From: Verrucomicrobiota bacterium
GTDB lineage: Bacteria; Verrucomicrobiota; Lentisphaeria; JABSQK01; JAJFLO01
Direction: 5' to 3'
Assembly (NCBI GenBank): GCA_021772615.1
Contig: JAJFLQ010000134.1
Span: 2,039-66,038, forward strand
DNA: 64,000 bases
Shown here piece after piece: positions 25,614 to 63,769 of this stretch. The notes beneath the pieces were generated by a model. The model saw nothing but the letters and a program-made list of their open reading frames with translations, was not told the DNA's origin and searched no databases. The first letter of the stretch is position 1; the number at the start of each line of letters is the position of its first letter. A program made the position numbers and the translations under genes.

Positions 25614-25856
<243 letters not shown>

Positions 25857-38095: not shown

Positions 38096-38115
38096 TATTA
38101 TCCAAATTTCGAGTC

Positions 38116-38182
38116 TGAGGTAAAGCCCTGTAAAGATGAACGTCCATTGGGGGGGACATCCGTTCGACGATGCGGTCGCCGC
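38116..38182 (+). repeat. dispersed intergenic repeat, type Y, copy 1 (carries small ORF 38136..38288)
   Basis: tgaggtaaagccctgtaaagatgaacgtccattgggggggacatccgttcgacgatgcggtcgccgc, ~75% identical to 48964..49035. Confidence 0.6.
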
Positions 38183-44974: not shown

Positions 44975-47710
44975 TCATGATTCGGAGATTTTGATCTGCA
45001 TACTTTTAAGCGTTTGCCTGGCCAGTTCGCAAACTTGTACGGAAATAGTCTTACGAGACGACTCGATGGCTTCCAATATGGGAACGCCTTTCGGATCTCC
45101 ACAGTGGCCTAATGCTTCGACAACCTCGGTTATTAACGCATTCTTCTTACGCCTTGGTATTTCGGCAATTACTTGCCACACGCTCGCATCTTTGCGATAG
45201 GTTAGTCCGACAGCCGCAATTAACCTGGTTTCCTGCTCGTCAGATTCAAGAGACTTCTTCAGTAATTCAAGTCCGTGAGCGGTGCCGATTAACGCCATTC
45301 CTCGCGCTGCCTTTGAGCGAAGATGAATGCGTACATCGTCATCCTGAAAAGTTGGCAGTCGCGGAGAAATGTAGGTCGATGGATCCAGGAAAAGAGTCTG
45401 CAAGATCTCCATCGCCGTAACATCACCTATTGTTCCGAGTGTCTTCGCAGCGGCGACTTGGACAGTCCAGATTGGATCACGTAGAGCTTGGATCAAAGGT
45501 CGAACGGCCTGTTGGTCGCCGACGTGTCCCAAAGAATTGGCTGCAGAGCAGCGTAGTGAATCAGACGGCGAACCAAGCGCCTTTATGAGGGCTGGAGAAA
45601 CACGAGAATCTCTGGTGTAACGCAACCCGTACGCAGCTGCGCTACCACAGTCATCCTTCTTAAGTCGAGACAGCAAACCGGATACAGAAGCACGTGTGTT
45701 AATGCGACCTAGCGCCTGCGCTGCGCTGCAGGTAATCATGGAATACTGGCCTGGCGTGCCCTCACCGGCCGTCAGTTCATATGTTTTGCCGTCTAGACTC
45801 CGCAACAACGGCCTAATCGCACGAGGATCTCCCATTTTTCCGAGCGCAATCGCTGCTGCTTTCCTGAACGGCCGTATGCCGCCCCCATCCCGCCAGGCCC
45901 GTGGTGAACAACAATCCAACAACGGCGCCGATCAGGCACCGATGTAGAAGTGTGCGCCTGCGGTTTCGCCGACTCTGTTCGATCCTGCTCGCGGCGATGA
46001 GGCGTTGCTCATGCGGCATTAACACACCCAGCCCCATTGCACCCTGTTCTACGACCAGCAAATCCGGTCCGTCGAGGATCGCACCGTGATGGTCGTTGGC
46101 CCACTCCACAGCGCGATTTTTCAGTATCCGTCGAGCGCGTGGCCCAGGAAGATCCGACTCGTCGAATTTGTGTCGTATCGGCAAGGCCAAGGTGTCGTGG
46201 GCCAAGCGCGTCGTTCTCTTCGCGCTGTTGCCTTTTGAGCCAGATTCGAACAGTAGATAAAGGTTCTTGCATTCCTCCAGGAGTCCGGAAAGCTCCTGCT
46301 TGTGATTATTGTACATCTTCATCAGGTCATCTCGACACCGCTCAGCCGCTGTCATTTGTGGTGTGGTATGATACACCAACAGGTCAAGCACAAACCCGGA
46401 CGACACCAAATCTGGATAGACTCCCGCCAACTGCGCGAGCTGGCGATCTACAAAGTCGTCCAGGAGCAGACCCTGCTTTTTGATTCGTAGGTAAAGGGAT
46501 TCGGTAAATGCTGGCGTGGCGCTACTCAACTCCGCGGCTTCTTCCCACATCTTTGTCAACAAGATTTGCAGTGCCGGCGCCGTCGGGGAGTCGCGATCGT
46601 TAAGCAGGTCATCGGCAATCTGTTCCGGAACATGGGTTTCTATGGTAAGGCCATATTGCTTTTGCAATCGTGCCGTGCTCACCAGCCCGTTCACAATTTC
46701 AATAACGGCGTCTCGATCCAATGCCTCAAGGAATACTCTTCCAAAGCTTACCGCGTTCAGATCGAATATTTTCTGGACCTCCGGGAACCACTCCTTACGA
46801 AATGACACGAGTATCTTTCCCTGAAAATCGCGACCGTCGACCGTGAATATTTCACTGAGCGCCTGCGCCAATTCAGCCAATTCATTGGGCCGGTCCGCGT
46901 TCGGATGCGTAAACACTTCCTCTACCTGATCCAATAGAATGATGAGCGGCTTGCCGACCGCGACCTCGGCGGTCCGCCATGCCACCCTCAAGGGGGTTCC
47001 AACTGTGGAATGCCCCGGGCCATCGCTCCCGTCCTGATCGTCGGCCAAATGGATTAAGGCCTTTTGAATCGTGATCGTAAGACTGTCCTTCTGGTCCCGG
47101 CGAATGTACAGGATCTCGTAATCCCTCTTCAATCGCGGCAGGAGGCCGGCAGCCAGGAATGACGATTTTCCCACTCCAGTTTGCCCATAGAGCATTGTGA
47201 TCGGTGCGGCGGCGGCGCTGGTGATCCGCTGGTACAAACTCTTCAGTTCCCGATTGCGACCGAAAAATATTTCGGCATCTGTTTCGACGAAATACTGTAA
47301 TTAACGGAACGGCTTCGCCGGCAGATCGCGCCGGGGCAGACCAGGCAAACCCCAGCAAGGGTCTGGAATCGGCAAGATATCGGCGCATCGTTCCGTAACA
47401 GTCGCGATTGGCGCAGGTCCGCCAGCGGCAACGGACGAACAGGCAACGGAGTCACACATTCAAGCAACGCCCAATCTTCATGCTGATCATGAAATGCGCC
47501 GTAAATTACGGCTTCGGTCGTGTGCTCCGGAAATTTCAGCGTGATTGTGCCGGGGGCAGGAACGGGTGGGGTTTGGAAACGATCTGCGACTACATGCAAC
47601 GCAGTGAGCATCAGCCGCTCGGACACCAGGCATCCGGTTCCGCGACTGATATTCGTGCCATCGTCGACGATATCAATGCGAGCGATGGCGTTTCGGACCA
47701 CAGAATCCAT
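44975..47710 (-). pseudogene. decayed paralog of the protease-NTPase-repeat gene: trypsin-like domain (internally deleted) - STAND-type NTPase - TM - HEAT repeats, split by nonsense and frameshift
   Basis: ORFs 47243..47710 (trypsin N-term, MDSVVRNAIARIDIVDDG..GTGCLV..LTALHVVAD), 45813..47237 (P-loop MLYGQTGVGKSSFLAAGLLPRL.., TM) and 44975..45922 (HEAT/PBS repeats LGKMGDPRAIRPLL..) are collinear with the intact 54580..58902 gene; in-frame TAA at 47301..47303 where the intact copy has Tyr (PFRY-LQYF); frame changes near 47375..47415 and in the overlap 45813..45922 containing a C5 tract (45881..45885). Confidence 0.55.
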
Positions 47711-48349: not shown

Positions 48350-48592
48350 ATGCCAACTGCAAAAATTGCGATAAGTATCGACGAATCTATACTTGGACGT
48401 TTAGATCGCCTAGTCCAGTCACACGTTTTCCCAAATCGTAGTAAGGCCGTTCAAAGGGCTATTGAAGAAAAGTTAAATCGGATAGATAAGACTCGTCTCG
48501 CCAGGGAGTGTGCAAAACTTGATCCCAAACTCGAACAATGCTTGGCGGAAGAGGGAATGGATTGGGAAGTCGACGAATGGCCAGAATACTAA
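48350..48592 (+). CDS. type II antitoxin (ribbon-helix-helix-like, MazE/PemI-type)
   Basis: 80 aa, [22 protein letters not shown]...[14 protein letters not shown]; overlaps the downstream toxin gene by 16 bp; locally low GC. Confidence 0.65.
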
Positions 48593-48915: not shown

Positions 48916-48963
48916 CCAGATAGCCACGAGCCGAATGATGAATCTTAGCAGAGCTCGGCAGTT

Positions 48964-49035
48964 TGAGGTAAAAGCCCAGTAACGTTGAACGTCCATTTTG
49001 GGGATCATCAAATCGATGGTGCGGGCGACCACGTT
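48964..49035 (+). repeat. dispersed intergenic repeat, type Y, copy 2 (carries small ORF 48985..49089)
   Basis: tgaggtaaaagcccagtaacgttgaacgtccattttggggatcatcaaatcgatggtgcgggcgacca. Confidence 0.6.
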
Positions 49036-49111
49036 ACCGTTCCTGTCATGATATATCCAATGGCACGCCGGCTGCAATCTGTAGCGTGATCAATTGTCGT
49101 TGGATAAAGGC

Positions 49112-50825: not shown

Positions 50826-50874
50826 GGTAACTCACTTTGTGATTTAAGATTAGTCTGATCAATTCCTTTCAGCC

Positions 50875-51098
50875 GTGCGGTCGCTGGGGACATCGACCCT
50901 CCACAAGACCGTAAAACGTGTCGTGCGGTCGGTGCGGACATCGACCCTCCACAAGACTGCAAAACGTGTGGTGCGGTCGCTGGGGACATCGACCCTCCAC
51001 AAGACTGCATAACGTGTGGTGCGGTCGCTGGGGACATCAACCCTCCACATGACTGCAGAACGTGTCGTGCGGTCGCTGGGGATCTGTGTCCTCTACGC
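50875..51098. repeat. 48-bp tandem repeat, ~4.6 copies (minisatellite)
   Basis: units gtgcggtcgctggggacatcgaccctccacaagactgcaaaacgtgtc at 50875, 50923, 50971, 51019 plus a partial at 51067; a few substitutions per unit; intergenic between two minus-strand genes. Confidence 0.85.
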
Positions 51099-51114: not shown

Positions 51115-54100
51115 TCAACTTCCCCGCTCCAGTTCTTCCACGATGATCGGAAAGACATCCCGATGGGCGTTTTTTCCGATCATACAGTCCAGATGAGCAT
51201 AATCCGGGATGACCCGCCGAGTGTACAGCTCTGTACCGTTGTTTTCGCGTAACCATAAGTAGGTTTTCTCGGAGCCGTCGGGGAAGAACATGGTATTTTT
51301 CGCACCGTGAATCAGGGAGATCGGTAAGGCGAGGCTTTTTACATTCGGCATATAAGTATCCTTGCCGTCCTTGTCCACGATGTACCCCTTCTGAAGGATC
51401 TTCAGGATCTGATGGAATACGTGAACGTTAAACGTCCCGAACATTTCCTGTATCGCATCATGCACTGCCGGATTCAGCTGGGCGTGCGTGTAGCAGTGTC
51501 CGAATATCGCGAAGATCCGGCGACAGACGGTACTGTTGCACTGCTCTTCCCTGGGGATTGGGTATAGCTTGACGATCTGATCAACAACATCGGCTCCGAG
51601 ACTTCCGCCGGGATCCGTTGTAAGCTCGTGTATGCCGAGATCCTCGCAAATAGTGGCCAGGCGTATGTCGGCTTTGAGTTTGCCATCGAGCTGGATGTCT
51701 GGATGAGGTGTAAATTGCGATGCAACAAACGAACGCACGCCTTTGAGCCCCGCGAGAAGAGCCATAAAACACGTTAGCGAGCCGACACAATGCGCCACCA
51801 CCTGTACGTCCTTACTCTTCGTTACCGAGCAGACCTCCCGCACCGCTGCCGGCCAGTCGCGCCTGGCGATATCGTCGAGCATAAACTGAGTACGTGAGAC
51901 CGGCAAATCCGGGCTTGCGCGGTAGTCCAATAACCACGTATCATACCCCTTTCCGCTAAGGTATTCAGCCAGATTCACCTCAACAGCGTCGAACGTGAAG
52001 CCATACGTTGAATTCCCGAAGCCGGGAGCGCAAATCACAGGCCCCTTCTCGCCTCCCTGAAAACGAATGAGCCGCAATTCAGCGCCGTCATCCGCAGTGA
52101 AATGGTGAATGTCCGGAGCCGGCGCGTTGAGCGGGCGTTTTTTACGCTGGAATCTCTCCCCCACCGTGCAACAGTCTGCGGTCACTCCTCCGTAACTCTG
52201 CCAGAGAGAGCCGGCAAAGAATTCGCCAAAGCGAGCCAGGGCACTGAGGCGTTGGGCCTCATTTTCGGCATTTGTAACGGCAATAGTCGTCATTTGCATC
52301 ATGAAATCCGCCGGCGCAATTTTGAGGATGCCTTTGCCGAGTACGGGCGCCTGTTCGTTCTCACCGTCATAAAGGGTGATGTACAGGGTTGTGGTTTGCG
52401 GCCATGCATTCAGCAGTGAACCATGGTTGATCACCTTATAGCCGTAGAAGTAGTAAACGCGCCCGTCTTCCGCGTGAAGTTTCATCTTGTAACGCATATT
52501 TCGCGTTTCGACTTCATCCTCATTGCTGATAAACAGGTTGAACGTCGCATCGCTTACGGTGAGCGACTGCGGCGAGAGCTCAGGAGCTGTGACGGTTCCG
52601 TGCATCTTCGCCTCATGCGCCGGATTATCGATAAGCTTATTGACGTCATCCGATACTACGCTGAGTACGAAATCGAGCATAGATCCGTCTTTCTCTCCCT
52701 GCTTCGCTGCTGCTGCAAAATCGTCTTTTACCTGGCACGAGAAGTAGCCTTTCATTTTCTCCGTAAATCGGATGCCGATCGTCTGCGCTACAGAGGGTTT
52801 TCGGGGTTTCGATCCGAATGTATAGTCGATCGACCATCCACGATCCTCCGCTATAATCGCGCAGCATCGCTCGGCCAGCGCCGAAATTGTCAGGAGAGGA
52901 TTCACGCCGACACTGGCAGGCAGGACAGCGCCGTCGCAAACGTAGAGCCCGTCATGGACCTCCTGTCCTTCATTACCGGAAAAAGCCTGTCCCTTGTGAT
53001 TGACGACGCCCGATTCTGCTCGATCGGCCATCACACAACCGCCCAATGGATGCACGGTGATCAGGCTTTTATGGAAGTGTTTGCTCCAGATAGGATTCTT
53101 GACATACTCACCATCCAACGCCTTTGTAGCCTCGTGCAAGCTTTCATTTATCGTTTCGAAGATGGGTTTTTTGCCTACATTCGGCCACGATATCCGAAGT
53201 CTATCATCCTGGAGCGTCATCTCGCCATCGCTATCATCATGGGCCATCACCAGATATGTCTGTGTATGTCTCGTCGCACCGAAGTATGCGCCGTGAAGCA
53301 GGCTTTCAGCGACTCTTGCAGTTCGTTCGATGCCTTCAAGAAAACCGACGTTCTTGTCGAGCCCCAGTGCGACCGCGGCCTCATTGAGTGCGCACGGCAG
53401 GATCCCTGCCATCGCACCAGGCATCACGCCTTCTTCGATGACATAACCGTCATGCACATTCGGCGTCTCACGATGATCGATGATGCCGGTTATGCAGGGT
53501 CCGGCAGGTGACGCGTGCCCGGGCCTGCGACGGCCCAACCCGATACCATTGATCTCGTCAGCGCAATTATAGCCAAAGCCGAGAACGTCCCCGTTGCCGG
53601 TAAAATTCCGGCCGAGCATATCCGGCAGGGACAAGCCTTTTTCCCGAGACCTCAGGAGGATTTGGGTTGAGCCAAGCGAGCCGGCAGCCACTATCACGAT
53701 ATCGCAGCTTACAAAGAGACTTTCAGCCTCGAATTTCTCGCGGCCTTCGCCAATAGTCTGGTAGAAAACCATCCATTTGCCATCGCGGCGTTCAACATTT
53801 CGAACGTTGATCTGCGTAAAGATCTCGGCGCCGTGATTCCATGCGTCCGGCAGGACATTCATTAACGTCGTGTTCTTTGCCGAATAATTACAACCGGAAA
53901 CACAATCGCCGCAACCGTTGCACGCCTTTTGCTCTACGCCCACAGGATTTGTCCCGTCCGCAAATGTGACATTGATCGGCGGACGATAAAACTCCCCCTC
54001 CAACCCCATACTTCGTGCTGATTTTTCCTGCGCCTTCAACTTTCCCAGTTCCGGAAAATCATCTGGATACGGCGTCGCTCCCAGGACCTTTTTCGCACGC

Positions 54101-54513
54101 TCATAGCCGTCCTTGATGCGTCCGTCCACATCGGCGCGAATTTCGTCCGGCCATCGCGGATCGTCCCATACTCGGGGATCCGCATGCAGCGACACATTCG
54201 CATTGATCAACGAGGTGCCGCCAAGTCCGCAGCCGACCAGCGCATTCATCTCTTCGTTGACATGGAACTCGAACATTCCCTCGTGGGAACCGACGTGGCC
54301 GGTTGGTGTATTGAGCTGGATCTCGGCCAACGCCTCCAATTCGGTATCCGGATATTCACCCGGGTGAATTTCGCGTCCGCGTTCCAGGACGCACACGTCT
54401 TGCCCCGCCCGCGACAATCGCGATGCCGCGATACCGCCGCCGTAGCCGGAACCAATGACGACAACCGTGTAGTGGTCCTTCATGTCGCTTGTTGGCGATG
54501 ATAAACGATTCAT
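51115..54513 (-). CDS. fusion protein: GMC-family FAD oxidoreductase (cholesterol-oxidase-like) + C-terminal alpha/beta-hydrolase domain
   Basis: N-term VVVIGSGYGGGIAASRLSRAGQDVCVLERG (FAD bab motif), GMC C-terminal active-site region HPLGGCVM...VCDGAVLPASVGVNP; C-term nucleophile elbow VVAHCVGSL; start MNRLSS with AAGGGGGG RBS (ORF 51115..54576 trimmed). Confidence 0.8.
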   Translation of the reverse strand: MNRLSSPTSDMKDHYTVVVIGSGYGGGIAASRLSRAGQDVCVLERGREIHPGEYPDTELEALAEIQLNTPTGHVGSHEGMFEFHVNEEMNALVGCGLGGTSLINANVSLHADPRVWDDPRWPDEIRADVDGRIKDGYERAKKVLGATPYPDDFPELGKLKAQEKSARSMGLEGEFYRPPINVTFADGTNPVGVEQKACNGCGDCVSGCNYSAKNTTLMNVLPDAWNHGAEIFTQINVRNVERRDGKWMVFYQTIGEGREKFEAESLFVSCDIVIVAAGSLGSTQILLRSREKGLSLPDMLGRNFTGNGDVLGFGYNCADEINGIGLGRRRPGHASPAGPCITGIIDHRETPNVHDGYVIEEGVMPGAMAGILPCALNEAAVALGLDKNVGFLEGIERTARVAESLLHGAYFGATRHTQTYLVMAHDDSDGEMTLQDDRLRISWPNVGKKPIFETINESLHEATKALDGEYVKNPIWSKHFHKSLITVHPLGGCVMADRAESGVVNHKGQAFSGNEGQEVHDGLYVCDGAVLPASVGVNPLLTISALAERCCAIIAEDRGWSIDYTFGSKPRKPSVAQTIGIRFTEKMKGYFSCQVKDDFAAAAKQGEKDGSMLDFVLSVVSDDVNKLIDNPAHEAKMHGTVTAPELSPQSLTVSDATFNLFISNEDEVETRNMRYKMKLHAEDGRVYYFYGYKVINHGSLLNAWPQTTTLYITLYDGENEQAPVLGKGILKIAPADFMMQMTTIAVTNAENEAQRLSALARFGEFFAGSLWQSYGGVTADCCTVGERFQRKKRPLNAPAPDIHHFTADDGAELRLIRFQGGEKGPVICAPGFGNSTYGFTFDAVEVNLAEYLSGKGYDTWLLDYRASPDLPVSRTQFMLDDIARRDWPAAVREVCSVTKSKDVQVVAHCVGSLTCFMALLAGLKGVRSFVASQFTPHPDIQLDGKLKADIRLATICEDLGIHELTTDPGGSLGADVVDQIVKLYPIPREEQCNSTVCRRIFAIFGHCYTHAQLNPAVHDAIQEMFGTFNVHVFHQILKILQKGYIVDKDGKDTYMPNVKSLALPISLIHGAKNTMFFPDGSEKTYLWLRENNGTELYTRRVIPDYAHLDCMIGKNAHRDVFPIIVEELERGS

Positions 54514-54579
54514 TATTCCCCCCTTTTGGTCTATCTTGTCGTTACCCGCTTTCACGGATCGGTTACGGCGGCGCATGGG

Positions 54580-57500
54580 TCAATCAACATGCCGTGCAAC
54601 TACGCTTTGCTGATCAATCGGCACAGTTTTCCACAGGCAGCGCTTACAAACCTTGGATGCGTCCCTCATCAACTGTGATTTCTCCGAACGATACTTGAAC
54701 TCGTACTGCAAGCGGTTACAGGCGATCTCAAGCCAATCGCGCCAATCCACGCGCCAGTGCCAAATCTGATTATCGGAGCTGCCGACAATGAGGTACTTAC
54801 CGTCTGCGCTGAAGGCCAGGGACGTGAATGTCGCCGCGCGGTAATCAGCAAGCACATCCGATATCAGCTCCATGCCACGGCCCCAGAGCCGCGCGACACC
54901 GTCTACTCCCGTGCTGGCAATCCTGCTGCCATCCGGACTGAATGCGAGAGCCGTTATGGGACCGTTATGCGCTCTCTTTTCACTCACCAGATTCGTGTTC
55001 GTGTCCAAATGCCACGAAAGAATAAATCCGTTTTCGGTACCGCTGAGAAGTATGTGTCCCGCCGGGTTGAAGGCCAGACTCGTTGGCGTGGAATACAGGT
55101 CCGATGTTGTTTGCAGAAGATTGCCGTCCAGATCCCACAATCGGACTGTGAGATCATCCGAGCACGTCGCGATACGATCTCCCTGCGGGTGGAAGGCAAC
55201 GGCTGTAATTACACCGCTATGCCCAACGAGATCACTCACGCATTGTCTCGTATCCACATCCCATAATCGCACCTGCTGATCAGCGCTGCCGCTGGCCACT
55301 AAATTGCCGTCCGGGCTGAACGCAATACAGGTTATCGGGGCGTAATGTCCCGACAACGGATCGCCGTCCGATTTACCTCCTGCCGTCCAAAACCTGAGAT
55401 ACTCATCGATCCCGCCGCTGACAAGGACGGTCCCGTCGGGATGTATGGCGAGGGACGATATGGAACCGGAACGGACTTCCACATTCCAGCCCGGCCGGTG
55501 TGTAGCCGCCGACCACCTGCGAATTGTGCCGCCCTGGCCGGCGCTGAAAAAGGCGTCGCCATCCGGGCTGTATGCCACCGCATTTACGGCAGCATCGTGA
55601 GCCTCAATCGGTTTCCCCACCATTATGCCCTCGGGATCAAGGAATTTAAGGGTTCCCTGATCGGTCCCGAATGCAATGAATGTGCCATTCGGATGGTAGC
55701 CTAGCGATTCCACGTTACCGACGTAACCCGTGAAGTCGGGGGCCACGTTGTTACCTTCGAAGTCGATAAAACGGATGGCACGGTCGTCGCCGGCACTGAC
55801 GATTCGCTCGCCATTCGAATGAACAACCAGGCTGGTGACCGCGCCGCCATGATGGGTAAACGGCTCTTTCGCCGCACTCCCGTCGAGATGCCACAACCGC
55901 ACCGTTCCATCGTCGCCACCGCTGACGAGCATGTCTCCTGCCGGATTGAACACAACGGCATTCACGCTCCCTGCGTGCCCGTCAATTGAGGTGAGCGATT
56001 CGTCTTCGAACTGAAATATGTGGATCTTGCCGTCACCGCTGGCGCTGGCAAAAGAAGTGCCGTCCGGGTTGAAAGAAATCTGATGGATGACCGCATGGTG
56101 TGCTTCTTTTGGCAATCGCAAGCTGGCGCCATTCGCGTCCCACAACTGTATCGACCCATCCCAGCAACCACTAAGTATTCTTGTACCATCAGAACTGATC
56201 GCCACTGCCGTAACATACTTGCGATTCGGTACGGGTTCACACCACACCTCGACACCCTCGGTAGTCCAAAAACACACTGTCCCGGCAGCACCGCCGCTGA
56301 CGATATGACAACCGTCCGGCGTGTAGACGACGGATTCAACACCTTCCTCATGCCCGGTAAAATTTTTATTAACAACCGTTCCATCCAACATTACCTGCTG
56401 GATAACAGGTTTGATTCCTCCGCATGCAACCGTGTGCCCATCCGGACTGAATGCGATCGAGTTGATGCCCCCCAACTTCGGAAACCAGATCGCATTCTTC
56501 TCCCGTGCGACTTCCACAGCACTGCTTAGTCCATGTTGTATGCCGTGCAGAACCCGATCGAACTGATCTTCGCTCTTGCCTACTAAAGCCACCGCGTTCG
56601 CCAGCGCCAACGCGGGTTCCTTTGAGAGCTTCTCGGGCATTTCGGCCGCTTCTTTTCGGATTAATGCTTCTTTGAATCGCCGTTGGGCCGTTTGTTTCTC
56701 CTCCTCCGCCTTCCTGCGTTCGGCCAACGCCGTGTTCTTATCGCGCTCAGCATCTACCTTTGCCTCTCTCGCCTCATGCGCCTTTTTTACCGCTTCATGC
56801 ATTCCGGTCCAGGCGAGTCCCGTCATAATCACCATTCCAACCACCGCCGCCGCCAGGCCCATATGCAACATCTGCCGAACACGATCTCTGCGTTTACGTT
56901 CAATCTTGCTGGCGGCCACGAGCCGTTTTTCATGCGGCATCAACACACCAAGGCCGCTTGCGCCGGCTTCGACAATCGCCAGGTCTGCCCTGTCCAGGAC
57001 GGCGCCAACTCGGTCGTCCTTCCATTCCATTGACCGATTCCCCAGGATACGACGAGCACGCGGACCCGGAAGATCCGATTCGTCGAAACGACAGCGAACC
57101 GGCAATGCGAGCGTATCGTGAGCCAGGCGAGTAACCTTCTTACCGGCCATCTGGTCATTCGACGAGTCGACGAGGAGGTATAGGCTCTTGCATCGCTCTA
57201 TCAAGGCGTCCAGATCATACCGGTGATTGCAATAGGTACGGTGAAGCTCATCTTCGCTGCGTGCCGCGGCAGTCATCATCGGTGTCGTGTGATAAACCAG
57301 GAGATTTAGCACGAAACCGGTATCCACCGCGTCACGGTGGTGTGCCGCCAGCTGACCCAGCTGACGATCCACAAAATCAGCCAGCAGCAGCCCGCATTTC
57401 TTGACGTCGTGATAGAGCTCGATCGTAAACGCCGGTGCCGAATTATTCGATTCCGTGGCTGCCTCCCACATCTTCGTCAGTAGGATTTGCAATGCAGGAG

Positions 57501-58902
57501 CGGTTGGCGACTCACGGTCTCTGAGGAGGTCATTGGCGACGAGCGCTGGTACCGCCGGATCTATGGTCAGCCCATAGTGTTGGCGAAGGCGCACGGTACT
57601 GTGCAGTCCGGCAACGATTTCGATGACGGCTTCATGATCGAGTGCTTCAAGAAAAACCTTGCCGAACCCCACGTCGCTCGATTCGAAAACCTTTTGTACT
57701 TCCGGGTACCACTCTTTGCGAAACGAGAAAATGATCCTGTTTCTGGACGACGGATTCCCGTTGGAGAACATGTGTTTCAGCACCTGAACAAGTTCGACGA
57801 GTTCATCTGGCTGGTTTTCGGTAGGTCGCGTAAAAACCTCCTCAACCTGGTCCAGTAAGATGACTATCGGTTTGCGAGCGTCGGTTTCCGCGGCACTCCA
57901 CACAGCAGGCAAGGGATCGGAAACAGAAGAATGCGGCTGCGAGTTAGCAGACGCGGGATCGGCTGTCAACTGAATCAATGCCCTGCGAATCGAACCGGAC
58001 AAGGTATCGTACTGGTCGCGGCGAACATAGAGAATTTCGTAGTGCCACGCCAGTCTGGGCAAGAGCCCGGCCGCGAGGAAGGATGACTTTCCTACTCCGG
58101 ACTGGCCATAGAGCAACGTGATCGGGGATGCGTCCTCGGCGATGACCCGTGAATACAAGGACCTGATCTCTCTATTCCTGCCAAAGAAAATTTCCGCGTC
58201 CTGCTCATCGAAATACTGTAGGTATCGAAAAGGTTTGACCGGTAATGGTCGACGCTGCAGACCGGGCAGTCCCCAACAGGGGTCGGGTATCGGCAGAAAG
58301 TCGGCGCATTTATCGATTATTGCAGCAATCGGACAGGCATACAACGTACCGGCCACAGCCTGATCATCCTTCATCAGAGCGAATCGCAACACACCCACGA
58401 TGGCGTTGTCTACGATCATCGGTGCGCCCGAGAGCCCTTTCACGGGTGCGCCTTCTCCTCCGGCAGCCTGCTTGCTGAACAATTGAATCGCGTCGATACC
58501 GTTGAGTAGTGCCTTGTGATTCTCCACCGTTCCCGTCTGGATCATGCCGTCAACCGGTTGGGAATCTGGAAATCCGTAGGTGACGAAATCGCCACCGGAC
58601 CTGCCGAGGTTGGCAAGGGGAATCGGCCGCGCCGAAACGGTATTCAGGCACGTTAACAACACCCAATCACTGTGGGGATCGAAGTATGAATCATAGATGG
58701 CTGCTTCGACGACGCCTTCGGGGAATTGCAGAAATATCGTGCCAGGGTGTGGCAGGGGCGGATTCTTTTCACGGTCGGCGACGACATGAAGAGCGGTAAG
58801 CACCAGACCGTCTGCAATCAGGCATCCGGTCCCACGACTCTTGCTTCTGCCTTCATCACCAACTTCGATGCGGGCGATAGCGTTTCGGACCAACGCGTCC
58901 AT
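54580..58902 (-). CDS. 1440-aa multidomain protein: trypsin-like serine protease - STAND-type P-loop NTPase - single TM - coiled coil - WD40 beta-propellers
   Basis: protease: GTGCLIADGLVLTALHVVAD..GLSGAPMIVDNAIVGVL; NTPase: ITLLYGQSGVGKSSFLAAGLLPRL, Walker B IVILLDQVEEVF; TM MGLAAAVVGMVIMTGLAWTG; Lys/Glu/Arg-rich coiled coil; >=12 WD repeats (..GHxxxVxxVAFSPDG..GSxDxTVRLWD..). Confidence 0.85.
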   Translation of the reverse strand: MDALVRNAIARIEVGDEGRSKSRGTGCLIADGLVLTALHVVADREKNPPLPHPGTIFLQFPEGVVEAAIYDSYFDPHSDWVLLTCLNTVSARPIPLANLGRSGGDFVTYGFPDSQPVDGMIQTGTVENHKALLNGIDAIQLFSKQAAGGEGAPVKGLSGAPMIVDNAIVGVLRFALMKDDQAVAGTLYACPIAAIIDKCADFLPIPDPCWGLPGLQRRPLPVKPFRYLQYFDEQDAEIFFGRNREIRSLYSRVIAEDASPITLLYGQSGVGKSSFLAAGLLPRLAWHYEILYVRRDQYDTLSGSIRRALIQLTADPASANSQPHSSVSDPLPAVWSAAETDARKPIVILLDQVEEVFTRPTENQPDELVELVQVLKHMFSNGNPSSRNRIIFSFRKEWYPEVQKVFESSDVGFGKVFLEALDHEAVIEIVAGLHSTVRLRQHYGLTIDPAVPALVANDLLRDRESPTAPALQILLTKMWEAATESNNSAPAFTIELYHDVKKCGLLLADFVDRQLGQLAAHHRDAVDTGFVLNLLVYHTTPMMTAAARSEDELHRTYCNHRYDLDALIERCKSLYLLVDSSNDQMAGKKVTRLAHDTLALPVRCRFDESDLPGPRARRILGNRSMEWKDDRVGAVLDRADLAIVEAGASGLGVLMPHEKRLVAASKIERKRRDRVRQMLHMGLAAAVVGMVIMTGLAWTGMHEAVKKAHEAREAKVDAERDKNTALAERRKAEEEKQTAQRRFKEALIRKEAAEMPEKLSKEPALALANAVALVGKSEDQFDRVLHGIQHGLSSAVEVAREKNAIWFPKLGGINSIAFSPDGHTVACGGIKPVIQQVMLDGTVVNKNFTGHEEGVESVVYTPDGCHIVSGGAAGTVCFWTTEGVEVWCEPVPNRKYVTAVAISSDGTRILSGCWDGSIQLWDANGASLRLPKEAHHAVIHQISFNPDGTSFASASGDGKIHIFQFEDESLTSIDGHAGSVNAVVFNPAGDMLVSGGDDGTVRLWHLDGSAAKEPFTHHGGAVTSLVVHSNGERIVSAGDDRAIRFIDFEGNNVAPDFTGYVGNVESLGYHPNGTFIAFGTDQGTLKFLDPEGIMVGKPIEAHDAAVNAVAYSPDGDAFFSAGQGGTIRRWSAATHRPGWNVEVRSGSISSLAIHPDGTVLVSGGIDEYLRFWTAGGKSDGDPLSGHYAPITCIAFSPDGNLVASGSADQQVRLWDVDTRQCVSDLVGHSGVITAVAFHPQGDRIATCSDDLTVRLWDLDGNLLQTTSDLYSTPTSLAFNPAGHILLSGTENGFILSWHLDTNTNLVSEKRAHNGPITALAFSPDGSRIASTGVDGVARLWGRGMELISDVLADYRAATFTSLAFSADGKYLIVGSSDNQIWHWRVDWRDWLEIACNRLQYEFKYRSEKSQLMRDASKVCKRCLWKTVPIDQQSVVARHVD

Positions 58903-59257: not shown

Positions 59258-61105
59258 ATGCAAAAAGGCAAACTGAAAATACTGGCGGGCTCTGGGGCTT
59301 TGGTTCGTCTCATTGGACGAGCGGCGGAAACATACGATGTAACCGTCGATAAGGATGTTCTCGTGTGGACTCACAGCCCAAGCTCACCGAACGGCACGCT
59401 GGAGGGCAAACAAATTCAGTCGGTCACACGACACGGAGCGGCCTTCATCGTGAATCTCCTGGCGAATACCAACGGAATACCGGCGTTGACATTTGAAGCT
59501 TCATCTGTATCAGACGCAAAGAAATGGACCACTGCTATTGAGGGGATTATCGGAAAAGCGCAAACCTGTATCCCCGACGCAGTACCAGCTGGGGTGGCGG
59601 ACGCAACGCCGGTGAGTGTGACGTACCAGGTAGCGAATTCCAACGCGGTCACAAAAGACTGTGCGCTCCTGGTAATCGCTTGTGATCCCAGGAATCTGGA
59701 TGGCGTGATTGATTATACCTCAGAGGAATCGGACATTTTCAGCAAGCTGATCAATTTCACATTTCACACAACGCTAATGAATGTGGAGGTACAAGGGCCT
59801 CAATCGTACGGCGTCATTTTTGCGCCGGGTCCTCTGGACGATATGAATGGCAGCTTCTACGGTTTTCGAAACGAAACGGCCAAACAATTCGGCCTGGACG
59901 CCGCCAATAAATTGTCTCACAATCTGGTGACGGTATATCAACTCGCAGGTCCCAGAGACACACCCTGGACTGATGAAGAATTCCAAAAGCTCCTGAAGCA
60001 ACAGCTGAAGACCAGTGACTGGTGGCCTTACGGGGACAAGTACGATATTCGTAAGACGGTGACGACACCCTACTTTGATCATTTCTCACAAGCCGGATTA
60101 AAAGAACACCTGCCTTGGAAAATTCTTGATTTGCAGGGCCAAAAGAATACCCTGTTTGTCCATGCCTTCACGTGTTTTGAGTCGGTGTTGCATTGTTGGG
60201 GTTATGCCAATTTGATGCTGGACAATTATCCGTGTGCGAAACAGGCGCTACCCAGGGAACTTGATGCCCCCATAGTCATACTCGGGGCCGGCCCCAGCGG
60301 ACTTTTGTTCGCCACGGCGCTTAAGCAACGCGGCTACACCAATGTGCAGATTCTGGAGGTTACGGATCGATATGGTGGAAAAACGCATACCGTCCTTGAA
60401 GATGGGCCGTGTCCTCCTGGAGCAACCGAAAAAACAGTCTGCGAATTGGGCACCTGTTATCTGTCTCCGGCGTACGATCCAATGGTCACCGCACTCAAGG
60501 AGTTTCTTACTGGAAACAAACAAATCGACTTCACCGCCGACAATCCAAATTTTCGAGGAATCGTAACAACTGGCGAGTTGCCTCCTTCACCCGACCTCGA
60601 CACCGTGATTGATTATGGCGAATACGTAATTCTAAAGGCGGAAGAAGAACTCGATTTCCCAAATTCCAAATTGAACCGAATCCTGGCGACGCTGGATATC
60701 GCGCTCGACCTCGGTAAGTATTCGTTAATTCACGCGGAATACATGGGATGGACGTTGCCGATGCCCAGCAATCCGCCGGAGGCGCTCGATCAAAAATTTG
60801 GCAACCAGAAATTTATTGATTTCCTGCGGTACCATAAGTTGATGTCTCTTGCCGGAATGTTGGAGTACGGTTATGAAGTACAGGGCTACGGCAGACTCAC
60901 CTCGATTCCGGCCTACTACGGGTTGCTATGGATGACACCCGCCATTACCTGGACGATATTACTGGACCAGCTCAAGTTGGAAGACAAACCCGTCGTCACC
61001 GCATGGACAAAAGGTTGGGGAGATGTATGGGATCAGATCGTCCGGAAGCAAGGTATCAATATCACCCTAAATGCAAAAACAACCTCCATCACGCGAACGA
61101 GATGA
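59258..61105 (+). CDS. two-domain protein: N-terminal PH-like domain + C-terminal FAD-dependent amine-oxidase-like domain
   Basis: start MQKGKLKIL with AAGGGGGAAC RBS (ORF 59222..61105 trimmed); dinucleotide-binding motif IVILGAGPSGLLFATALKQRGYTNVQILEVTDRYGGK at ~aa 335. Confidence 0.5.
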   Translation: MQKGKLKILAGSGALVRLIGRAAETYDVTVDKDVLVWTHSPSSPNGTLEGKQIQSVTRHGAAFIVNLLANTNGIPALTFEASSVSDAKKWTTAIEGIIGKAQTCIPDAVPAGVADATPVSVTYQVANSNAVTKDCALLVIACDPRNLDGVIDYTSEESDIFSKLINFTFHTTLMNVEVQGPQSYGVIFAPGPLDDMNGSFYGFRNETAKQFGLDAANKLSHNLVTVYQLAGPRDTPWTDEEFQKLLKQQLKTSDWWPYGDKYDIRKTVTTPYFDHFSQAGLKEHLPWKILDLQGQKNTLFVHAFTCFESVLHCWGYANLMLDNYPCAKQALPRELDAPIVILGAGPSGLLFATALKQRGYTNVQILEVTDRYGGKTHTVLEDGPCPPGATEKTVCELGTCYLSPAYDPMVTALKEFLTGNKQIDFTADNPNFRGIVTTGELPPSPDLDTVIDYGEYVILKAEEELDFPNSKLNRILATLDIALDLGKYSLIHAEYMGWTLPMPSNPPEALDQKFGNQKFIDFLRYHKLMSLAGMLEYGYEVQGYGRLTSIPAYYGLLWMTPAITWTILLDQLKLEDKPVVTAWTKGWGDVWDQIVRKQGINITLNAKTTSITRTR

Positions 61106-61129
61106 ATCCATCTCGGGCAATGATTGATT

Positions 61130-61290
61130 CATTGCTGATGTTTGTAGTACTCGTCGGCCTGCCTGTCTTTCATAAGCGTGGATCGCAGCAGAGCGACAAC
61201 GGCATCGTCGATGATCATCGGCGCACCTGAAAGGCCTTTTACTGGAGCGCCCTCGCCTGCTGCCGCCTGTTTACCAGAGCTCGACTTATG
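61130..61290 (-). pseudogene. orphan 3' fragment of a trypsin-like protease domain
   Basis: minus-strand translation SSGKQAAAGEGAPVKGLSGAPMIIDDAVVALLRSTLMKDRQA matches the catalytic-Ser region of 54580..58902; preceded by in-frame stop. Confidence 0.5.
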
Positions 61291-61477
61291 TTGAGCTCAA
61301 CCGTCTGTAAAGTTGAATGCCATCATCCTTGCACCGTTTAGAAGGGACGCGGCGTGTTGATAAAGGACAACTATACAGCTCTGTCCAACTCTGGTTAACG
61401 TTTGCCGGGGGATTTTGCTTTCTTTTTTTCTTTGCGGCTTTGCGTCTCTGCGCGAGTTCAATTTCGTTACGGATTGA

Positions 61478-61557
61478 TGTAGCCACGGCTCTGTGAGCTG
61501 TGCCACGCAACGCGAAGCAACGTAAAGTACGGCACGTCTCACAGAGACGTGGCTACA
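61478..61557. repeat. long imperfect hairpin (20-bp arms, 1 mismatch, 40-nt loop with nested pairing)
   Basis: tgtagccacggctctgtgag ... ctcacagagacgtggctaca. Confidence 0.6.
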
Positions 61558-61624
61558 CGCTGCCGCTTCCACCAGCGTTTGGCGTACAGACTTTTGACGT
61601 GTAGCTGCAAACGACGTTGGTTTC

Positions 61625-61706
61625 GGGGTGTAGGCGACCGCTTTACAGTTACTCGGCCGGGCAACCACAAAATCTGCGCGAACTGTAAAGCGGTCGCCTA
61701 CACCCC
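61625..61706. repeat. perfect 26-bp inverted repeat with 30-bp spacer
   Basis: ggggtgtaggcgaccgctttacagtt ... aactgtaaagcggtcgcctacacccc. Confidence 0.7.
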
Positions 61707-61740
61707 GGACGCGGCATGTTTAAAAAATGGGCGTTCAACC

Positions 61741-62289
61741 TTACAGCTCTGTCGAACTCTGGAGAGCGAACCGCAGCACACCAACCACGGCGTTGTCCAT
61801 CAGCATTGGTGCGCCCGACAACCCCTTAACGGGCGCTCCGTCGCCGGCCGCCGCCTGCTTGCTGTATAGCTGAATGGCATGAATGCCGTTTAGCTGCCCG
61901 TGATGGTTCTCCACGGTTCCGGTCTGAATCATGCCGTCAACCGGTTGCGAATCGGGGAACCCGTAGGTAACGAACTCGCCGCCCGACTCGCGGAGGTCTG
62001 CAAGCGGGAGGGGCTGGATTGGGACCGATTCTTCGCACTTCAATATCGCCCAGTCGCCCTGGGGATCGTAATAGGTTTCATACAGCGTCGCTTCGACCTT
62101 ACATTCAGGAAAGGTGAGCGTGATTGTGCCGGGATAAGCGGCAGGGGGATTCTCGAACCGATTCGCGACGACGTGCAACGCCGTAAGCACCAGCCGATCG
62201 GCTACCAGGCAACCGGTACCGCGACTGAGATTTTTGCCGCCGTCGTTGACGTCGATTCGAGCGATAGCATTTCGGACCAACGCGTCCAT
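61741..62289 (-). CDS. stand-alone trypsin-like protease domain (third paralog, truncated after protease domain)
   Basis: MDALVRNAIARIDVNDGGKNLSRGTGCLVADRLVLTALHVVAN...GLSGAPMLMDNAVVGVLRFALQSSTEL*; high identity to N-terminus of 54580..58902 but stops where the intact gene continues into the NTPase. Confidence 0.55.
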   Translation of the reverse strand: MDALVRNAIARIDVNDGGKNLSRGTGCLVADRLVLTALHVVANRFENPPAAYPGTITLTFPECKVEATLYETYYDPQGDWAILKCEESVPIQPLPLADLRESGGEFVTYGFPDSQPVDGMIQTGTVENHHGQLNGIHAIQLYSKQAAAGDGAPVKGLSGAPMLMDNAVVGVLRFALQSSTEL

Positions 62290-62932
62290 GATGAAACCCA
62301 ATCTGTGCAAGCGCAATGTTTGCCTACGGCGACATCGATCTCTTGCCAGGTAGAGAACGAATGATGTCACAACTGGTGGCCGCTAAATGATTGTAACCAC
62401 CGCAGCGATGCGACACCAAAGAACATTACTGGCGTACACCGCAAGGCTAACCGCAGAAATATAAGAATGCAAACCAACTACGAATAGACCTCCCCCAACC
62501 TATCGACCATCGACATCATGTTTCGCGCCAGGACGCGTCTGCGCAACAACGTCTGGAGGGCGGATGGCCCCAGCCGCCGATTTAAACCAATCTTGCGCGC
62601 TCGCAAGCCGAGGGCGGTTCCAAGACTATATCGCACACCAACTTGTAGCGGGAAATCCGGCGAGATCGGCCCAGGAATCGGCAAAATATTGACATCTAAG
62701 TGTACGATTAATACCTTTTGTATAGCTAGATGTCAATCTAGGGAATCGTAATCTGTGATAATTCTTACGCACGCCTAGCCTCAGTAACGACATGGCGTAT
62801 AGTATGAGCTACTTTCGCGGGAAATGATGGATTTTGTAAGAAGGCAAAATCGTTAACCTCTCACATTTGCCTACTTCAACGTGAAGTATATTCGTATAAG
62901 AAACTTGTGTCATAGTAGAATTACTAACAAGA

Positions 62933-63769
62933 ATGGAGATTAGTATTATGATCGGATTTATTCCTAAAGAAATTCATATAGTATTCGTAGTCATTGGACT
63001 TATTTCATTGAATTCGGCTACCCTTTTTGCTGGTGGAATCACAAATGATTTCAGTTCCCTCGCTGGATTAACCATAGACAGCGGATCAACGGATAACGGT
63101 ATTGTTATTGGTGGTGGCGTTGGAGGATCAAATGCTTATTTTGGGGGTAGTTCGCCTACCCCTCCTGTTGGAGGAGGCTACTTCGGAAATGCTGCTACGT
63201 TCGTCGCACCCAATTTAACCTTTGATTTGGCCGCTGGAGATGTAACCATTTCAGCAGTAATGCGGAATAGCAGTTCAAGTACACTATTGAATGAGTCATA
63301 CTTGTGGTTTGGGCCAGAAGTGACTGTACTAGGCAACCCTCTTGCTGATTTCCCGACTGTAGAAAGAGAAGGAATCCTTTTTGGTGGAGCGTCGAACCTC
63401 GCCACTTATCAAGTTTGGGACTTGGGTGATTCTGTGACGAATGACCTACTATTGTTTTCCGATACACCGGGAATCCCACTGGATTCATGGTTCGATATAG
63501 AAGCGACGCTGGGGATCAATGCGAGTAGTGAACTTATCCTTACCACAGCAATCGACGGAGTGCCGACTGGTCCCTTTAATTTAGGATTGGCATCGAATTA
63601 CCCTTGGATAAACAATATGAGAGTTGGGTTAGGCGTAGATGATTTAGCCGACAGCTTTAGCGTTAATTCAGCCGTCCCTGAACCCTCCACCTACGCACTG
63701 ATCCTGACGGGTTTTCTTGGACTCGGCTGGATCAAACGCAAGCGCCAGAATGCGGTTTACGTCGCATAA
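62933..63769 (+). CDS. PEP-CTERM-anchored secreted protein (exosortase substrate)
   Basis: N-terminal signal/TM; C-terminus VPEPSTYALILTGFLGLGWIKRKRQ = PEP motif + hydrophobic helix + basic cluster; gene markedly AT-richer than surroundings. Confidence 0.8.
   Translation: MEISIMIGFIPKEIHIVFVVIGLISLNSATLFAGGITNDFSSLAGLTIDSGSTDNGIVIGGGVGGSNAYFGGSSPTPPVGGGYFGNAATFVAPNLTFDLAAGDVTISAVMRNSSSSTLLNESYLWFGPEVTVLGNPLADFPTVEREGILFGGASNLATYQVWDLGDSVTNDLLLFSDTPGIPLDSWFDIEATLGINASSELILTTAIDGVPTGPFNLGLASNYPWINNMRVGLGVDDLADSFSVNSAVPEPSTYALILTGFLGLGWIKRKRQNAVYVA

Follow-up and report, generated by a model that had tools for sequence, protein, structure and literature searches.

A low-copy mosaic repeat of probable REP/BIME/MITE-like nature at the junction of two broken Trypsin_2-nSTAND1-WD40 paralogs

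Introduction

In the stretch of DNA analysed here (64,000 nucleotides, hereafter called the window), a short ORF on the minus strand (61741..62289) encodes a trypsin-like protein that ends abruptly. Downstream from it lie two large hairpins, a pair of imperfect direct repeats and a second piece of protease coding sequence. What interrupted this gene, and what is the DNA now separating its two protease-derived flanks? An earlier note, made from the letters of the sequence alone, suggested either the insertion of a MITE-like or hairpin element or a rearrangement by replication slippage. We conclude, with a probability of about 0.7, that the junction of this paralog of a Trypsin_2-nSTAND1-WD40 conflict-system gene is occupied by a low-copy mosaic repeat of the REP/BIME/MITE-like type. 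The locus displays ordinary genome decay together with a lineage-specific REP/MITE-like repeat, and no new kind of system.

Truncation of the third protease paralog

The reference member of the gene family is an intact paralog on the minus strand (54580..58902; 1440 aa), with Trypsin_2, nSTAND1 and WD40 domains, identified on the basis of Pfam profiles, a match to the N-terminal part of PADLOC Avs1b and a structure model. A second, degraded paralog (45813..47710, minus strand; tblastn and Pfam) has kept nSTAND1, but its frame is split and its protease domain lacks approximately codons 103-189; HEAT repeats follow it, in ORF 44975-45922 (Pfam). The third paralog is represented by the called ORF at 61741..62289 (minus strand), the 182-aa translation of which ends in ...RFALQSSTEL*, as originally described. 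This ORF matches Trypsin_2 (2.7e-12, 48 bits) and Trypsin (1.9e-8, 35 bits) with scores above both Pfam cut-offs, the match spanning positions 27-198 of the 220 in the profile.

The domain had been described as complete and nearly identical to the N-terminus of the intact gene. Neither description holds: identity to the intact paralog is 70% for the amino-acid sequence (tblastn) and about 76% for the DNA, with saturated synonymous sites, and the protease sequence stops at codon 176. Homology to the intact paralog (58376-58627) ends at 61763, and codons 1-176 (61762-62289) are protease-derived, whereas the last six codons and the stop (QSSTEL*) are contributed by a repeat module, referred to below as module A. 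The edge of the repeat block abuts codon 176, and the ORF therefore reads six codons into module A, where it meets the stop codon of the element. In the alignment, the homologues all run on as ...LMKDxQxVAGTLYACP..., and the VAGTLYACP motif is missing from the truncated ORF. An AlphaFold model of the N-terminus of the intact paralog (pLDDT 83) is HtrA-like (TM ~0.7), with a final strand (residues 186-191) and a C-terminal helix (192-199) located past codon 176. As judged from this model, the S1C/HtrA-like two-barrel fold predicted for the ORF is incomplete, lacking its last strand and helix.

The catalytic triad (H39, D79 and S158) occupies near-invariant columns of the homologue alignment and is entirely conserved in the ORF. 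The region upstream from the third paralog is homologous to that upstream from the intact one, its promoter-proximal part matching other paralogs. The dN/dS ratio with respect to the intact paralog (~0.11) mostly reflects the history of the gene before truncation, and some residual function is possible. No NTPase or WD40 coding sequence was found in the 61105-61741 interval (ORF list and tblastn); nSTAND1 and the repeat sensor have been lost from this paralog. With neither an NTPase nor a repeat sensor, and with an unfinished protease fold, it cannot play the role of a STAND switch. A recently formed pseudogene, and not an active protease, is the most plausible reading of the ORF. The search for an uninterrupted allele was unsuccessful, the best non-self relatives being at most 57% identical.

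An orphan fragment from a fourth paralog

A further piece of protease coding sequence lies beyond the far end of the block (61156..61272, minus strand; tblastn and translation). The earlier note had recognised here a duplicated fragment of the protease C-terminus. The orphan fragment is real, but it corresponds to the region of the catalytic serine (codons 144-182) and not to the end of the protein. It has no start codon, an in-frame stop is present upstream, and homology ceases at about codon 185. Its tblastn identity is 77% with the intact paralog and 66% with the adjacent ORF. In the comparison with that ORF, 29 of 98 positions are mismatched, 22 of them at third codon positions (pS 0.74, pN 0.13; Fisher p = 7e-8), and divergence of the same coding type was obtained with both other copies (pS 0.74-0.77, pN 0.125-0.13). 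This bias towards third positions implies that the fragment came from a separate, once-functional paralog that evolved under selection, rather than from a slippage duplicate. Its pattern of coding divergence thus points firmly to an independent origin, as the relic of a fourth protease paralog. The block is bordered by segments of two different paralogs, one covering codons 1-176 and the other codons 144-185, which overlap in codon coverage.

Two other interpretations of the fragment were rejected. The copies do not form the VR/TR pair of a DGR, because the mismatches involve all four bases rather than being adenine-specific, with 22 of the 29 at third positions. An apparent extension of the homology into an upstream "LLNG...IQLY" stretch is better explained as an inverted repeat module, A'', described below.

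Organisation of the repeat block

The two flanks are separated by a non-coding block of 489 bp (61274..61762), lying between convergent genes and downstream from an ORF, with coding sequence abutting both its sides. Read on the minus strand, it consists of module A, hairpin 1 (HP1), hairpin 2 (HP2), an A-rich tail, module A' and the inverted module A''. Module A, the right-hand direct repeat (61707..61762, minus strand), constitutes the 5' end of the element, contains the stop codon of the ORF and can be aligned with the other A copies. Module A', the left-hand direct repeat (61344..61394, minus strand; nhmmer E = 7.8e-14), has the same orientation. The imperfect direct repeats of about 50 bp reported previously are genuine, with a 27-nt block 89% identical and a 20-nt block 85% identical on either side of a diverged middle containing indels.

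The third module, A'' (61274..61327, plus strand), which was absent from the earlier description, is inverted with respect to A and A'. It was detected with a module-A profile (nhmmer E = 0.043); its local alignment scored better than all 300 shuffles for two of the three A copies (p = 0.007 for the third), and the long form of the module is common to A'' and to the solo copies. Two such solo, diverged copies are present in the window. One, on the plus strand at 48948..49046 and including an HP1-arm-like sequence, lies just 3' of mazF (Pfam) and was found with nhmmer (E = 0.004 with the element as the query; 3.4e-18 with the module-A profile, which was partly built from this sequence). The other (38101..38180, plus strand) occupies an interval between convergent genes, immediately after the 3' end of a glycosyltransferase gene, and was identified in a repeat search of the window (family D7) and with nhmmer (E = 2.2e-14, again with a profile partly built from it). 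The derivation of module A from antisense protease sequence was considered and rejected, there being no significant similarity to protease genes.

Copies of the block in other genomes

Extra copies of the hairpin unit were sought, and the unit proved not to be unique to this locus. A 372-bp copy, 96% identical and with unrelated flanks, was found in the Nitrospinaceae MAG OFTM7 (contig L003), which belongs to the MAGs from an Oslofjord tunnel biofilm (PMC11995701). It differs from the window by 11 substitutions and one 4-nt indel, a deletion in the inter-hairpin spacer, and the contig stops at the first bases of A' (CCAG). This copy begins exactly at the 61763|61762 junction, its first position corresponding to 61762 and paralog homology ending at 61763; its upstream flank is unrelated. 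At the other end of the block, the limit of A'' (61274) is followed by the start of fragment homology at 61272. The sequences bordering the block (...GCTCT and TAAAC...) have nothing in common, and there is no target-site duplication. No protease gene was detected before the OFTM7 copy in a six-frame protease profile search, and in-register nucleotide identity there was 36/90 (40%). The idea of a decayed protease remnant at this position was set aside as unproven: 19 of 15,557 offsets reach 36/90, and the profile search was negative.

A third, diverged and partial copy, on another NCBI contig of 15,294 bp, is visible through a spurious ORF (P0020) and comprises the spacer, HP2, the tail and module A. 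It ends in ...NQSSTEL*, corresponding to module A after the tail, and the sequence upstream from its hairpins differs. In all, three copies are known, one of them partial and the other two full or near-full. The direct repeats, first thought to flank an insertion, are internal modules of the element rather than a target-site duplication, because the 96% match of the OFTM7 copy includes the left repeat and P0020 ends in the right repeat; the solo copies at 38101-38180 and 48948-49046 also bear on this point. The 4-nt indel between copies breaks a long ORF, the differences in the other frame are mostly non-synonymous and neither ORF was called as a gene; the block is therefore non-coding, and a small protein encoded by the element was rejected on the same grounds.

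Among GTDB representatives, the exact HP1 20-mer was found in the OFTM7 genome only, at a single locus. No further copies were found in JGI metagenomes, IMG/VR, plasmids or phages, and a search with the plus-frame pseudo-protein retrieved nothing. Several candidates were discarded: the JGI metagenome matches are single-arm chance matches in a conserved coding gene, a GTDB match (L004) is a chance 20-mer within a coding region, and the exhaustive search of representatives returned, in addition to P0020, three spurious matches, one of which, P0023 (a phage tandem repeat, L011), is unrelated at the DNA level. A Logan contig (L001) breaks off at 61734, after 29 nt of module A, as might be expected if a k=31 graph branched at a repeat; this break carries no weight, as other Logan contigs break at non-repeat positions.

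Structure and conservation of the hairpins

The two large hairpins reported in the earlier note were confirmed and are far beyond chance expectation. HP1 (61624..61707) has a perfect 27-bp stem (arms 61624-61650 and 61681-61707) with a 30-nt loop. HP2 (61478..61557) has 27-nt arms (61478-61504 and 61531-61557) that are 89% complementary, with a 26-nt loop. Each arm pattern is unique within the 64-kb window, with 0 matches expected from shuffles. When up to three mismatches were allowed, the HP2 arm pattern was found in this cluster only within the 64 kb, and in the homologous cluster only on L003. DNA folding yielded -37 to -40 kcal/mol for HP1 (z ~ -9.5) and -27 to -29 kcal/mol for HP2 (z ~ -5), and the hairpin region was far more stable than shuffles (z -6 to -9).

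HP2 consists of a pair of GTAG-tagged palindromes of 27 nt each, arranged as a REPIN-like inverted dimer with 26 nt between them; the REP unit is GTAGCCACGTCTCTGTGAGACGTGCC. A single HP2 arm forms a stem of 8 bp and a 3-nt loop, preceded by an unpaired GTAG (GTAGC + CACGTCTC-TGT-GAGACGTG). The HP1 arms are not palindromic, and no self-folding was found for single HP1 arms. The spacer between the hairpins (61558..61623, minus strand), as read from the sequence and the nhmmer alignment, carries a third GCTACAC motif. The A-rich tail (61395..61477, minus strand; T-rich on the plus strand) ends in ...GGCAAACGTTAA, lies inside the 96% match to L003 and is shorter in P0020.

In the nhmmer alignment of the window and OFTM7 copies, none of the 54 stem nucleotides of HP1 is changed, versus 3 of the 30 loop nucleotides; the HP2 stem has two changes, both of which keep or improve pairing. 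In P0020, translation shows the HP2 arms to be conserved, with a loop shorter by 6 nt. A minus-strand consensus scan revealed no intrinsic terminator at HP1 or HP2, and no U-tract follows either hairpin on the strand of the gene. On the plus strand, weak terminator candidates only were noted, in the T-rich tail. An Rfam scan of 60500-63000 (E ≤10) gave nothing above noise, with sub-threshold microRNA-type hairpin matches only, and there is no tRNA or tmRNA gene near the locus.

Origin of the junction

We interpret the block as a member of a low-copy interspersed repeat family restricted to the Nitrospinaceae lineage, the members of which normally lie just 3' of ORFs, in the manner of REP/REPIN/BIME and MITE-like elements. 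Copies of the element may have inserted in, or recombined between, two neighbouring paralogs, and the intervening DNA and the remainder of the downstream paralog would then have been deleted. Mobilisation of the element would occur in trans, the most plausible enzyme being a HUH transposase of the RAYT type, with a DDE transposase as another possibility; in the window ORFs covered by the Pfam scans, no RAYT (Y1 HUH), transposase, integrase, recombinase or reverse transcriptase was detected. The initial suggestion of a MITE-like or hairpin-element insertion is upheld to the extent that the block is a repeated, apparently mobile, non-coding sequence whose edge coincides with the break in the protease copy, but not for a MITE in the strict sense, given the lack of a target-site duplication and of a cognate transposase.

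A canonical MITE would be a 489-bp deletion derivative of an IS with a DDE transposase, inserted once into the protease gene, with A and A'' as its TIRs. The block is indeed small, non-coding and present in several contexts, and its ends are TIR-like (CCAGAG(T/C)TCGAC): CCAGAGTTCGAC and CCAGAGCTCGAC match in inverted orientation at 11 of 12 terminal bases, with weaker similarity over some 50 nt behind them, the A'' end being known from the window copy alone. We nevertheless consider this origin unlikely: in addition to the missing target-site duplication and the lack of a transposase in the window, module A is directly repeated inside the element and occurs as solo copies, and a single simple insertion cannot yield flanks that are overlapping parts of different paralogs. 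Replication slippage, or a local tandem duplication creating the direct repeats and the second fragment in situ, would account for repeats in direct orientation and for a far-side fragment overlapping codons 144-176. It is effectively refuted by the 22 third-position changes among the 29 mismatches in 98 positions, which are incompatible with a neutral local duplicate, and by the presence of the modules and hairpins at other loci and in other genomes. Alternatively, A and A' might be attL and attR, left by site-specific integration after the loss of internal genes: direct repeats of about 50 bp, with conserved outer blocks and a diverged centre, flank the block, and a target-gene fragment lies beyond the far repeat, as in integrative elements carrying a substitute gene end. 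Such a remnant is very improbable, as no recombinase was found, the whole unit, A included, is copied at 96% identity in an unrelated site, solo A-type modules follow unrelated genes, one A-type module is inverted, and the fragment overlaps the missing part of the ORF instead of complementing it.

The arrangement might also be functional, with a genuine stand-alone protease followed by a conserved structured 3' region that would terminate transcription, stabilise the mRNA or give a small RNA, and the element a duplicated regulatory module. In its favour are an uninterrupted ORF that retains the catalytic triad, homology of the promoter-proximal region to the other paralogs, conserved stems with variable loops and a fold far more stable than shuffles; REP-type hairpins 3' of ORFs are, in addition, known to stabilise transcripts (PMC3733652). 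This explanation appears improbable to us: the ORF stops before a conserved strand and helix of the fold, the hairpins are not followed by a U-tract on the gene's strand and have no Rfam match above noise, the profile search revealed no protease gene before the block on L003 (in-register nucleotide similarity of only 40%), and the sequence upstream differs in P0020. A bolder variant of our preferred interpretation, of a REP/BIME/MITE-like mosaic repeat, deserves mention as an outside chance. The 370-490-bp block might be an undescribed composite mobile element of Nitrospinaceae, in which copies of a module of about 55 nt enclose a GTAG-REP dimer, a second long hairpin and an A-rich tail that move as one unit; it would insert in coding sequence, bring its own stop and serve as a recombination substrate for the turnover of STAND conflict-gene paralogs, with transposition (RAYT-type or, given the A-rich tail, through an RNA intermediate) of a kind non-standard for REPs or MITEs.

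Relationship to known systems

For GTAG-tagged REPs, their inverted dimers (REPINs) and their clusters (BIMEs), mobilisation by RAYT/TnpA-REP HUH transposases has been proposed (Di Nocera et al. 2013, PMC3733652; Bertels & Rainey 2011, PMC3337134), and GTAG REPs, palindromes of 20-40 bp that carry an unpaired GTAG at one end, are located between convergent genes, 3' of ORFs (PMC3733652). HP2 conforms to this pattern, with two inverted units of about 27 nt, each having an unpaired GTAG, an 8-bp stem and a 3-nt loop, jointly forming a larger hairpin; the block is likewise non-coding, 3' of an ORF between convergent genes, and a modular mosaic with several palindrome types side by side. It differs in its apparently very low copy number (no other in 64 kb + 7.9 kb), typical REPs being high-copy, in the non-palindromic arms of HP1, which leave HP2 as the only GTAG palindrome, in the copying of the whole 370-490-bp mosaic as one unit, in the lack of a RAYT gene among scanned ORFs and in the coding sequence abutting both sides.

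The resemblance to other small repeats is also partial. MITEs and small non-autonomous repeats, such as the Correia elements (CREE) of Neisseria and the Rickettsia palindromic elements, land in genes and supply stops or in-frame insertions. The block shares with them its size (489 bp), non-coding nature, apparently TIR-like termini, strong structure, unrelated flanks and an ORF ending inside it, but differs in lacking a target-site duplication and an identified parent IS, in repeating its terminal module internally in direct orientation and in having few known copies. The BOX elements of Streptococcus pneumoniae have a modular boxA-boxB-boxC structure and more than 100 copies per genome. Here too, modules occur alone or combined, with stable hairpins, near gene ends, but sequence and lineage are unrelated and copy number is low. 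The gene itself belongs with the trypsin-like protease + nSTAND1 + WD40/HEAT NTPases of NTP-dependent conflict systems (PF20703; PADLOC Avs1b N-terminal protease): this is the exact architecture of 54580-58902, and the third paralog is homologous to its first 176 codons, differing in the lack of the fold end, NTPase and repeat sensor.

Implications

The significance of these findings is modest, and they open no long-standing question. Nitrospinaceae are marine nitrite oxidisers known mostly from MAGs; the block adds a REP/REPIN-like mosaic repeat from this family, where repeats of this type are also a cause of broken assemblies. Annotators should regard the 182-aa "trypsin-like peptidase" as the product of a truncated pseudogene and not as a stand-alone protease family. 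The locus provides a nucleotide-resolution view of the dismantling of fast-evolving STAND-type conflict-gene paralogs, with breakpoints coinciding with the edges of a palindromic interspersed repeat.

Truncation of the third protease paralog

The short protease ORF recognized by the ORF and Pfam scan (third paralog; 61741-62289, minus strand) is convergent with a flavin amine-oxidase-like gene (plus strand) ending at 61105, and the region of the hairpin block lies between the two. The intact paralog (54580-58902, minus strand) encodes 1440 aa with Trypsin_2, nSTAND1 and WD40 domains (Pfam), and its N-terminal part corresponds to the protease end of Avs1b in PADLOC. A second, degraded paralog (45813-47710, minus strand) lacks about codons 103-189 of the protease, has a split frame and continues into what appears to be a sensor part made up of HEAT repeats rather than WD40. 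Over 44975-47710 (minus strand), it is broken into at least three ORFs, corresponding to protease codons 1-102, nSTAND1 and the HEAT repeats, the last of which shares about 110 nt with the nSTAND1 ORF.

The third copy had been described in the earlier note as a complete trypsin-like domain nearly identical to that of the intact gene. Protein identity between the two is only 70% over 181 residues, without gaps, and, given the saturated pS (0.68) and a dN/dS of about 0.11, they are old paralogs. Nor is the domain complete: the third copy matches the family only up to codon 176, and then reads QSSTEL*, whereas all recovered homologues continue after ...GVLRFAL with LMKDxQxVAGTLYACP, followed by a PFRYL...FFGR linker into nSTAND1. 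Residues 1-215 of the intact paralog were modelled with AlphaFold (pLDDT 83, pTM 0.84); the model, aligned by Foldseek with HtrA/DegP/HtrA1 protease domains (200-219 columns, TM 0.65-0.71), has its final beta-strand at residues 186-191, followed by a helix (192-199). Although the His/Asp/Ser triad is retained in the third copy, this strand and helix, which close the protease fold, are missing, together with everything downstream. This ORF is a truncated paralog.

Origin of the orphan protease fragment

The orphan protease fragment reported previously is present at 61156-61272 (minus strand), and matches protease-domain codons 144-182. It overlaps codons 144-176 of the truncated ORF and extends slightly past the breakpoint of this ORF to about codon 185, where homology is lost; beyond lies a terminator-like hairpin of the convergent gene. 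Of 98 aligned bases, 29 differ between the fragment and the ORF, and 22 of the differing bases are third codon positions (pS 0.74, pN 0.13; Fisher p = 7e-8); the same pattern was obtained against the intact paralog. Replication slippage had been suggested as a source of this arrangement, but changes would be evenly spread in a neutral copy made by slippage, or in a target duplication, in contrast to the third-position bias found here. The fragment is therefore a remnant of a fourth paralog, one that was under selection at the protein level during most of its evolution.

Structure of the hairpin block

Both large hairpins were found as described. The first (HP1) is a perfect 27-bp inverted repeat (61624-61650/61681-61707) with a 30-nt loop, and the second (HP2) has 27-bp arms (61478-61504/61531-61557; 89% complementary) and a 26-nt loop. 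Their folding energies as single-stranded DNA are -37 to -40 kcal/mol for HP1 (z about -9.5) and -27 to -29 kcal/mol for HP2 (z about -5); folding of the 456-nt stretch as a whole gave z values of -6.4 (minus strand) and -8.9 (plus strand). Their arms have no other occurrence in the window at ≤3 mismatches (shuffles gave 0 matches). Taken singly, each arm of HP2 forms a small palindrome, with an unpaired GTAGC followed by an 8-bp stem (CACGTCTC/GAGACGTG) and a 3-nt loop, whereas the HP1 arms contain GTAG yet form no fold singly. The hairpin region has no match in Rfam, and a U-tract on the strand of the gene is absent at both hairpins.

The imperfect direct repeats noted at 61707-61762 (module A) and 61344-61394 (A') are present, as two blocks at 85-89% identity separated by a diverged, indel-bearing middle. 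An inverted copy, A'' (61274-61327, plus strand), was detected with a profile of A copies (E = 0.043); local alignments of three A copies to this stretch beat, or nearly beat, every shuffle, and A'' has the longer form also found in diverged solo copies of the module. These solo copies lie directly 3' of a glycosyltransferase gene (38101-38180) and directly 3' of mazF (48948-49046), the latter with an HP1-arm-like continuation. On the minus strand, the order of the block is thus A, HP1, spacer, HP2, A-rich tail, A' and inverted A'', which together occupy 489 bp, from 61762 down to 61274. At the tips, CCAGAGTTCGAC matches the complement of CCAGAGCTCGAC in 11 of 12 positions. No short duplication flanks the 489 bp, and the right tip adjoins 61272, where the homologous codons of the orphan fragment begin.

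Copies of the block elsewhere

A 20-mer of the HP1 arm, searched against one genome per GTDB species, matched in two places. One match (L004) sits inside a coding region and was rejected as a chance 20-mer match; the other lies at the end of a 7.9-kb contig (L003) of OFTM7, a Nitrospinaceae MAG from an Oslofjord subsea-tunnel biofilm (PMC11995701). This is a different assembly, since the window's own contig was absent from the matches. Positions 7532-7899 of L003 are 96% identical to 61762 down to 61391 of the window (11 substitutions and one 4-nt indel), taking in the right-hand direct repeat and ending with CCAG, the opening bases of the left-hand repeat. The match begins at the exact nucleotide where homology between the third and intact paralogs ends (61763), so the breakpoint of the truncated ORF is the edge of the repeat. 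Upstream of L003 7532, the flank is unrelated to the protease, and the protease profile was negative in every frame; a weak in-register nucleotide similarity (36/90) was not convincing as a protease remnant. L003 also encodes a 1358-aa WD40-repeat protein (1029-5105, minus strand) and a Ser/Thr kinase (5252-6334, plus strand), of the same general class of large signalling/conflict genes as those of the window.

A third, diverged copy was found by searching protein collections with a stop-free translation of the element. It is a spurious 142-aa ORF (P0020) on a 15-kb NCBI contig. It runs through spacer, HP2 and tail and closes with '...NQSSTEL*', a copy of module A ending the ORF after the tail. 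At the translated level, its HP2 arms are identical to those of the element, and both its loop (by 6 nt) and its tail are shorter. Searches of JGI metagenomes, IMG/VR, plasmids and phages yielded no further copies. With copies in both contigs, the block is a dispersed repeat.

Between the window and L003, none of the 54 stem positions of HP1 has changed, against three changes in its 30-nt loop, and the two changes in the HP2 stem convert C-G to T-G and a C.A mismatch to C-G. This pattern, with very few events, is consistent with selection on pairing.

Relationship to known repeats

The HP2 arm has the same anatomy as GTAG-tagged REPs (unpaired GTAGC, 8-bp stem, 3-nt loop), HP2 as a whole resembles a REPIN-type dimer of two such units in inverted orientation, and a position downstream of ORFs, between convergent genes, also fits (PMC3733652; PMC3337134). 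However, in the sequence available the block lacks the high copy number of a REP family, and the window ORFs that were scanned yielded no transposase, RAYT or integrase. As for the MITE-like element proposed earlier, the block has no target duplication and its TIR is only partly supported. The direct repeats were ruled out as a target duplication, as the same module lies within the L003 and P0020 copies. In working terms, the block is a REP/REPIN/BIME-like or MITE-like non-autonomous repeat at a pseudogene junction, and we file it as a new, low-copy palindromic interspersed repeat within this known general class.

Other features of the window

A 48-bp tandem repeat (50874-51082, to about 51114; 4.4 copies, 92% identity) lies directly 3' of a GMC-oxidoreductase/hydrolase gene (51115-54576, minus strand), and a Logan contig (L002) breaks within it. 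Its unit has the motifs GGGGACATC and GTGCGGTCGC in common with the solo module at 38101-38180; the 8-mer GCGGTCGC occurs 15 times in the window, versus 5.3 expected. A different 63-bp intergenic sequence is common to the window (35470-35532) and L003 (7247-7309; 87% identity), where the hairpin element follows about 220 bp downstream; this suggests that the lineage has a second family of small repeats. Where ORFs 38233-39570 and 39533-41704 (both minus strand) join, there is another long GC-rich inverted repeat (39445-39520), with a 26-nt loop between 25-nt arms that are 88% complementary; a weak inverted match to it lies at 53974-54010. The 1.7-kb gap on the upstream side of the degraded second paralog contains a type II toxin-antitoxin pair (48350-48915, plus strand; RHH/CopG antitoxin of 80 aa and PemK/MazF toxin), with a solo module A directly after it.

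The presence of dnaA (13164-14558, minus strand), with lepA and signal peptidase I (lepB) nearby (17418-20637), indicates that the window is chromosomal, and it is probably near the replication origin. A tRNA-Arg(CCG) (25761-25837, plus strand) lies within ORF 25548-27506 of the mechanical listing. Pfam gave no match to this ORF, whose 5' part, at least, is unlikely to be a gene. A 1438-aa secreted-looking protein (29898-34214, plus strand) is encoded with internal repeats of about 600 nt (69-70% identity).

Inferred history of the locus

Neighbouring paralogs may each have gained copies of the repeat or have lain next to them. The 3' part of the third paralog and most of the fourth would then have been lost through recombination or deletion, either between these copies or beside them, leaving codons 1-176 and codons 144-185 with the repeat block between them. 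The 96% identity of the block to the OFTM7 copy, set against the saturated divergence of the paralogs, suggests that the repeat arrived recently, which would account for the truncated ORF having stayed open.
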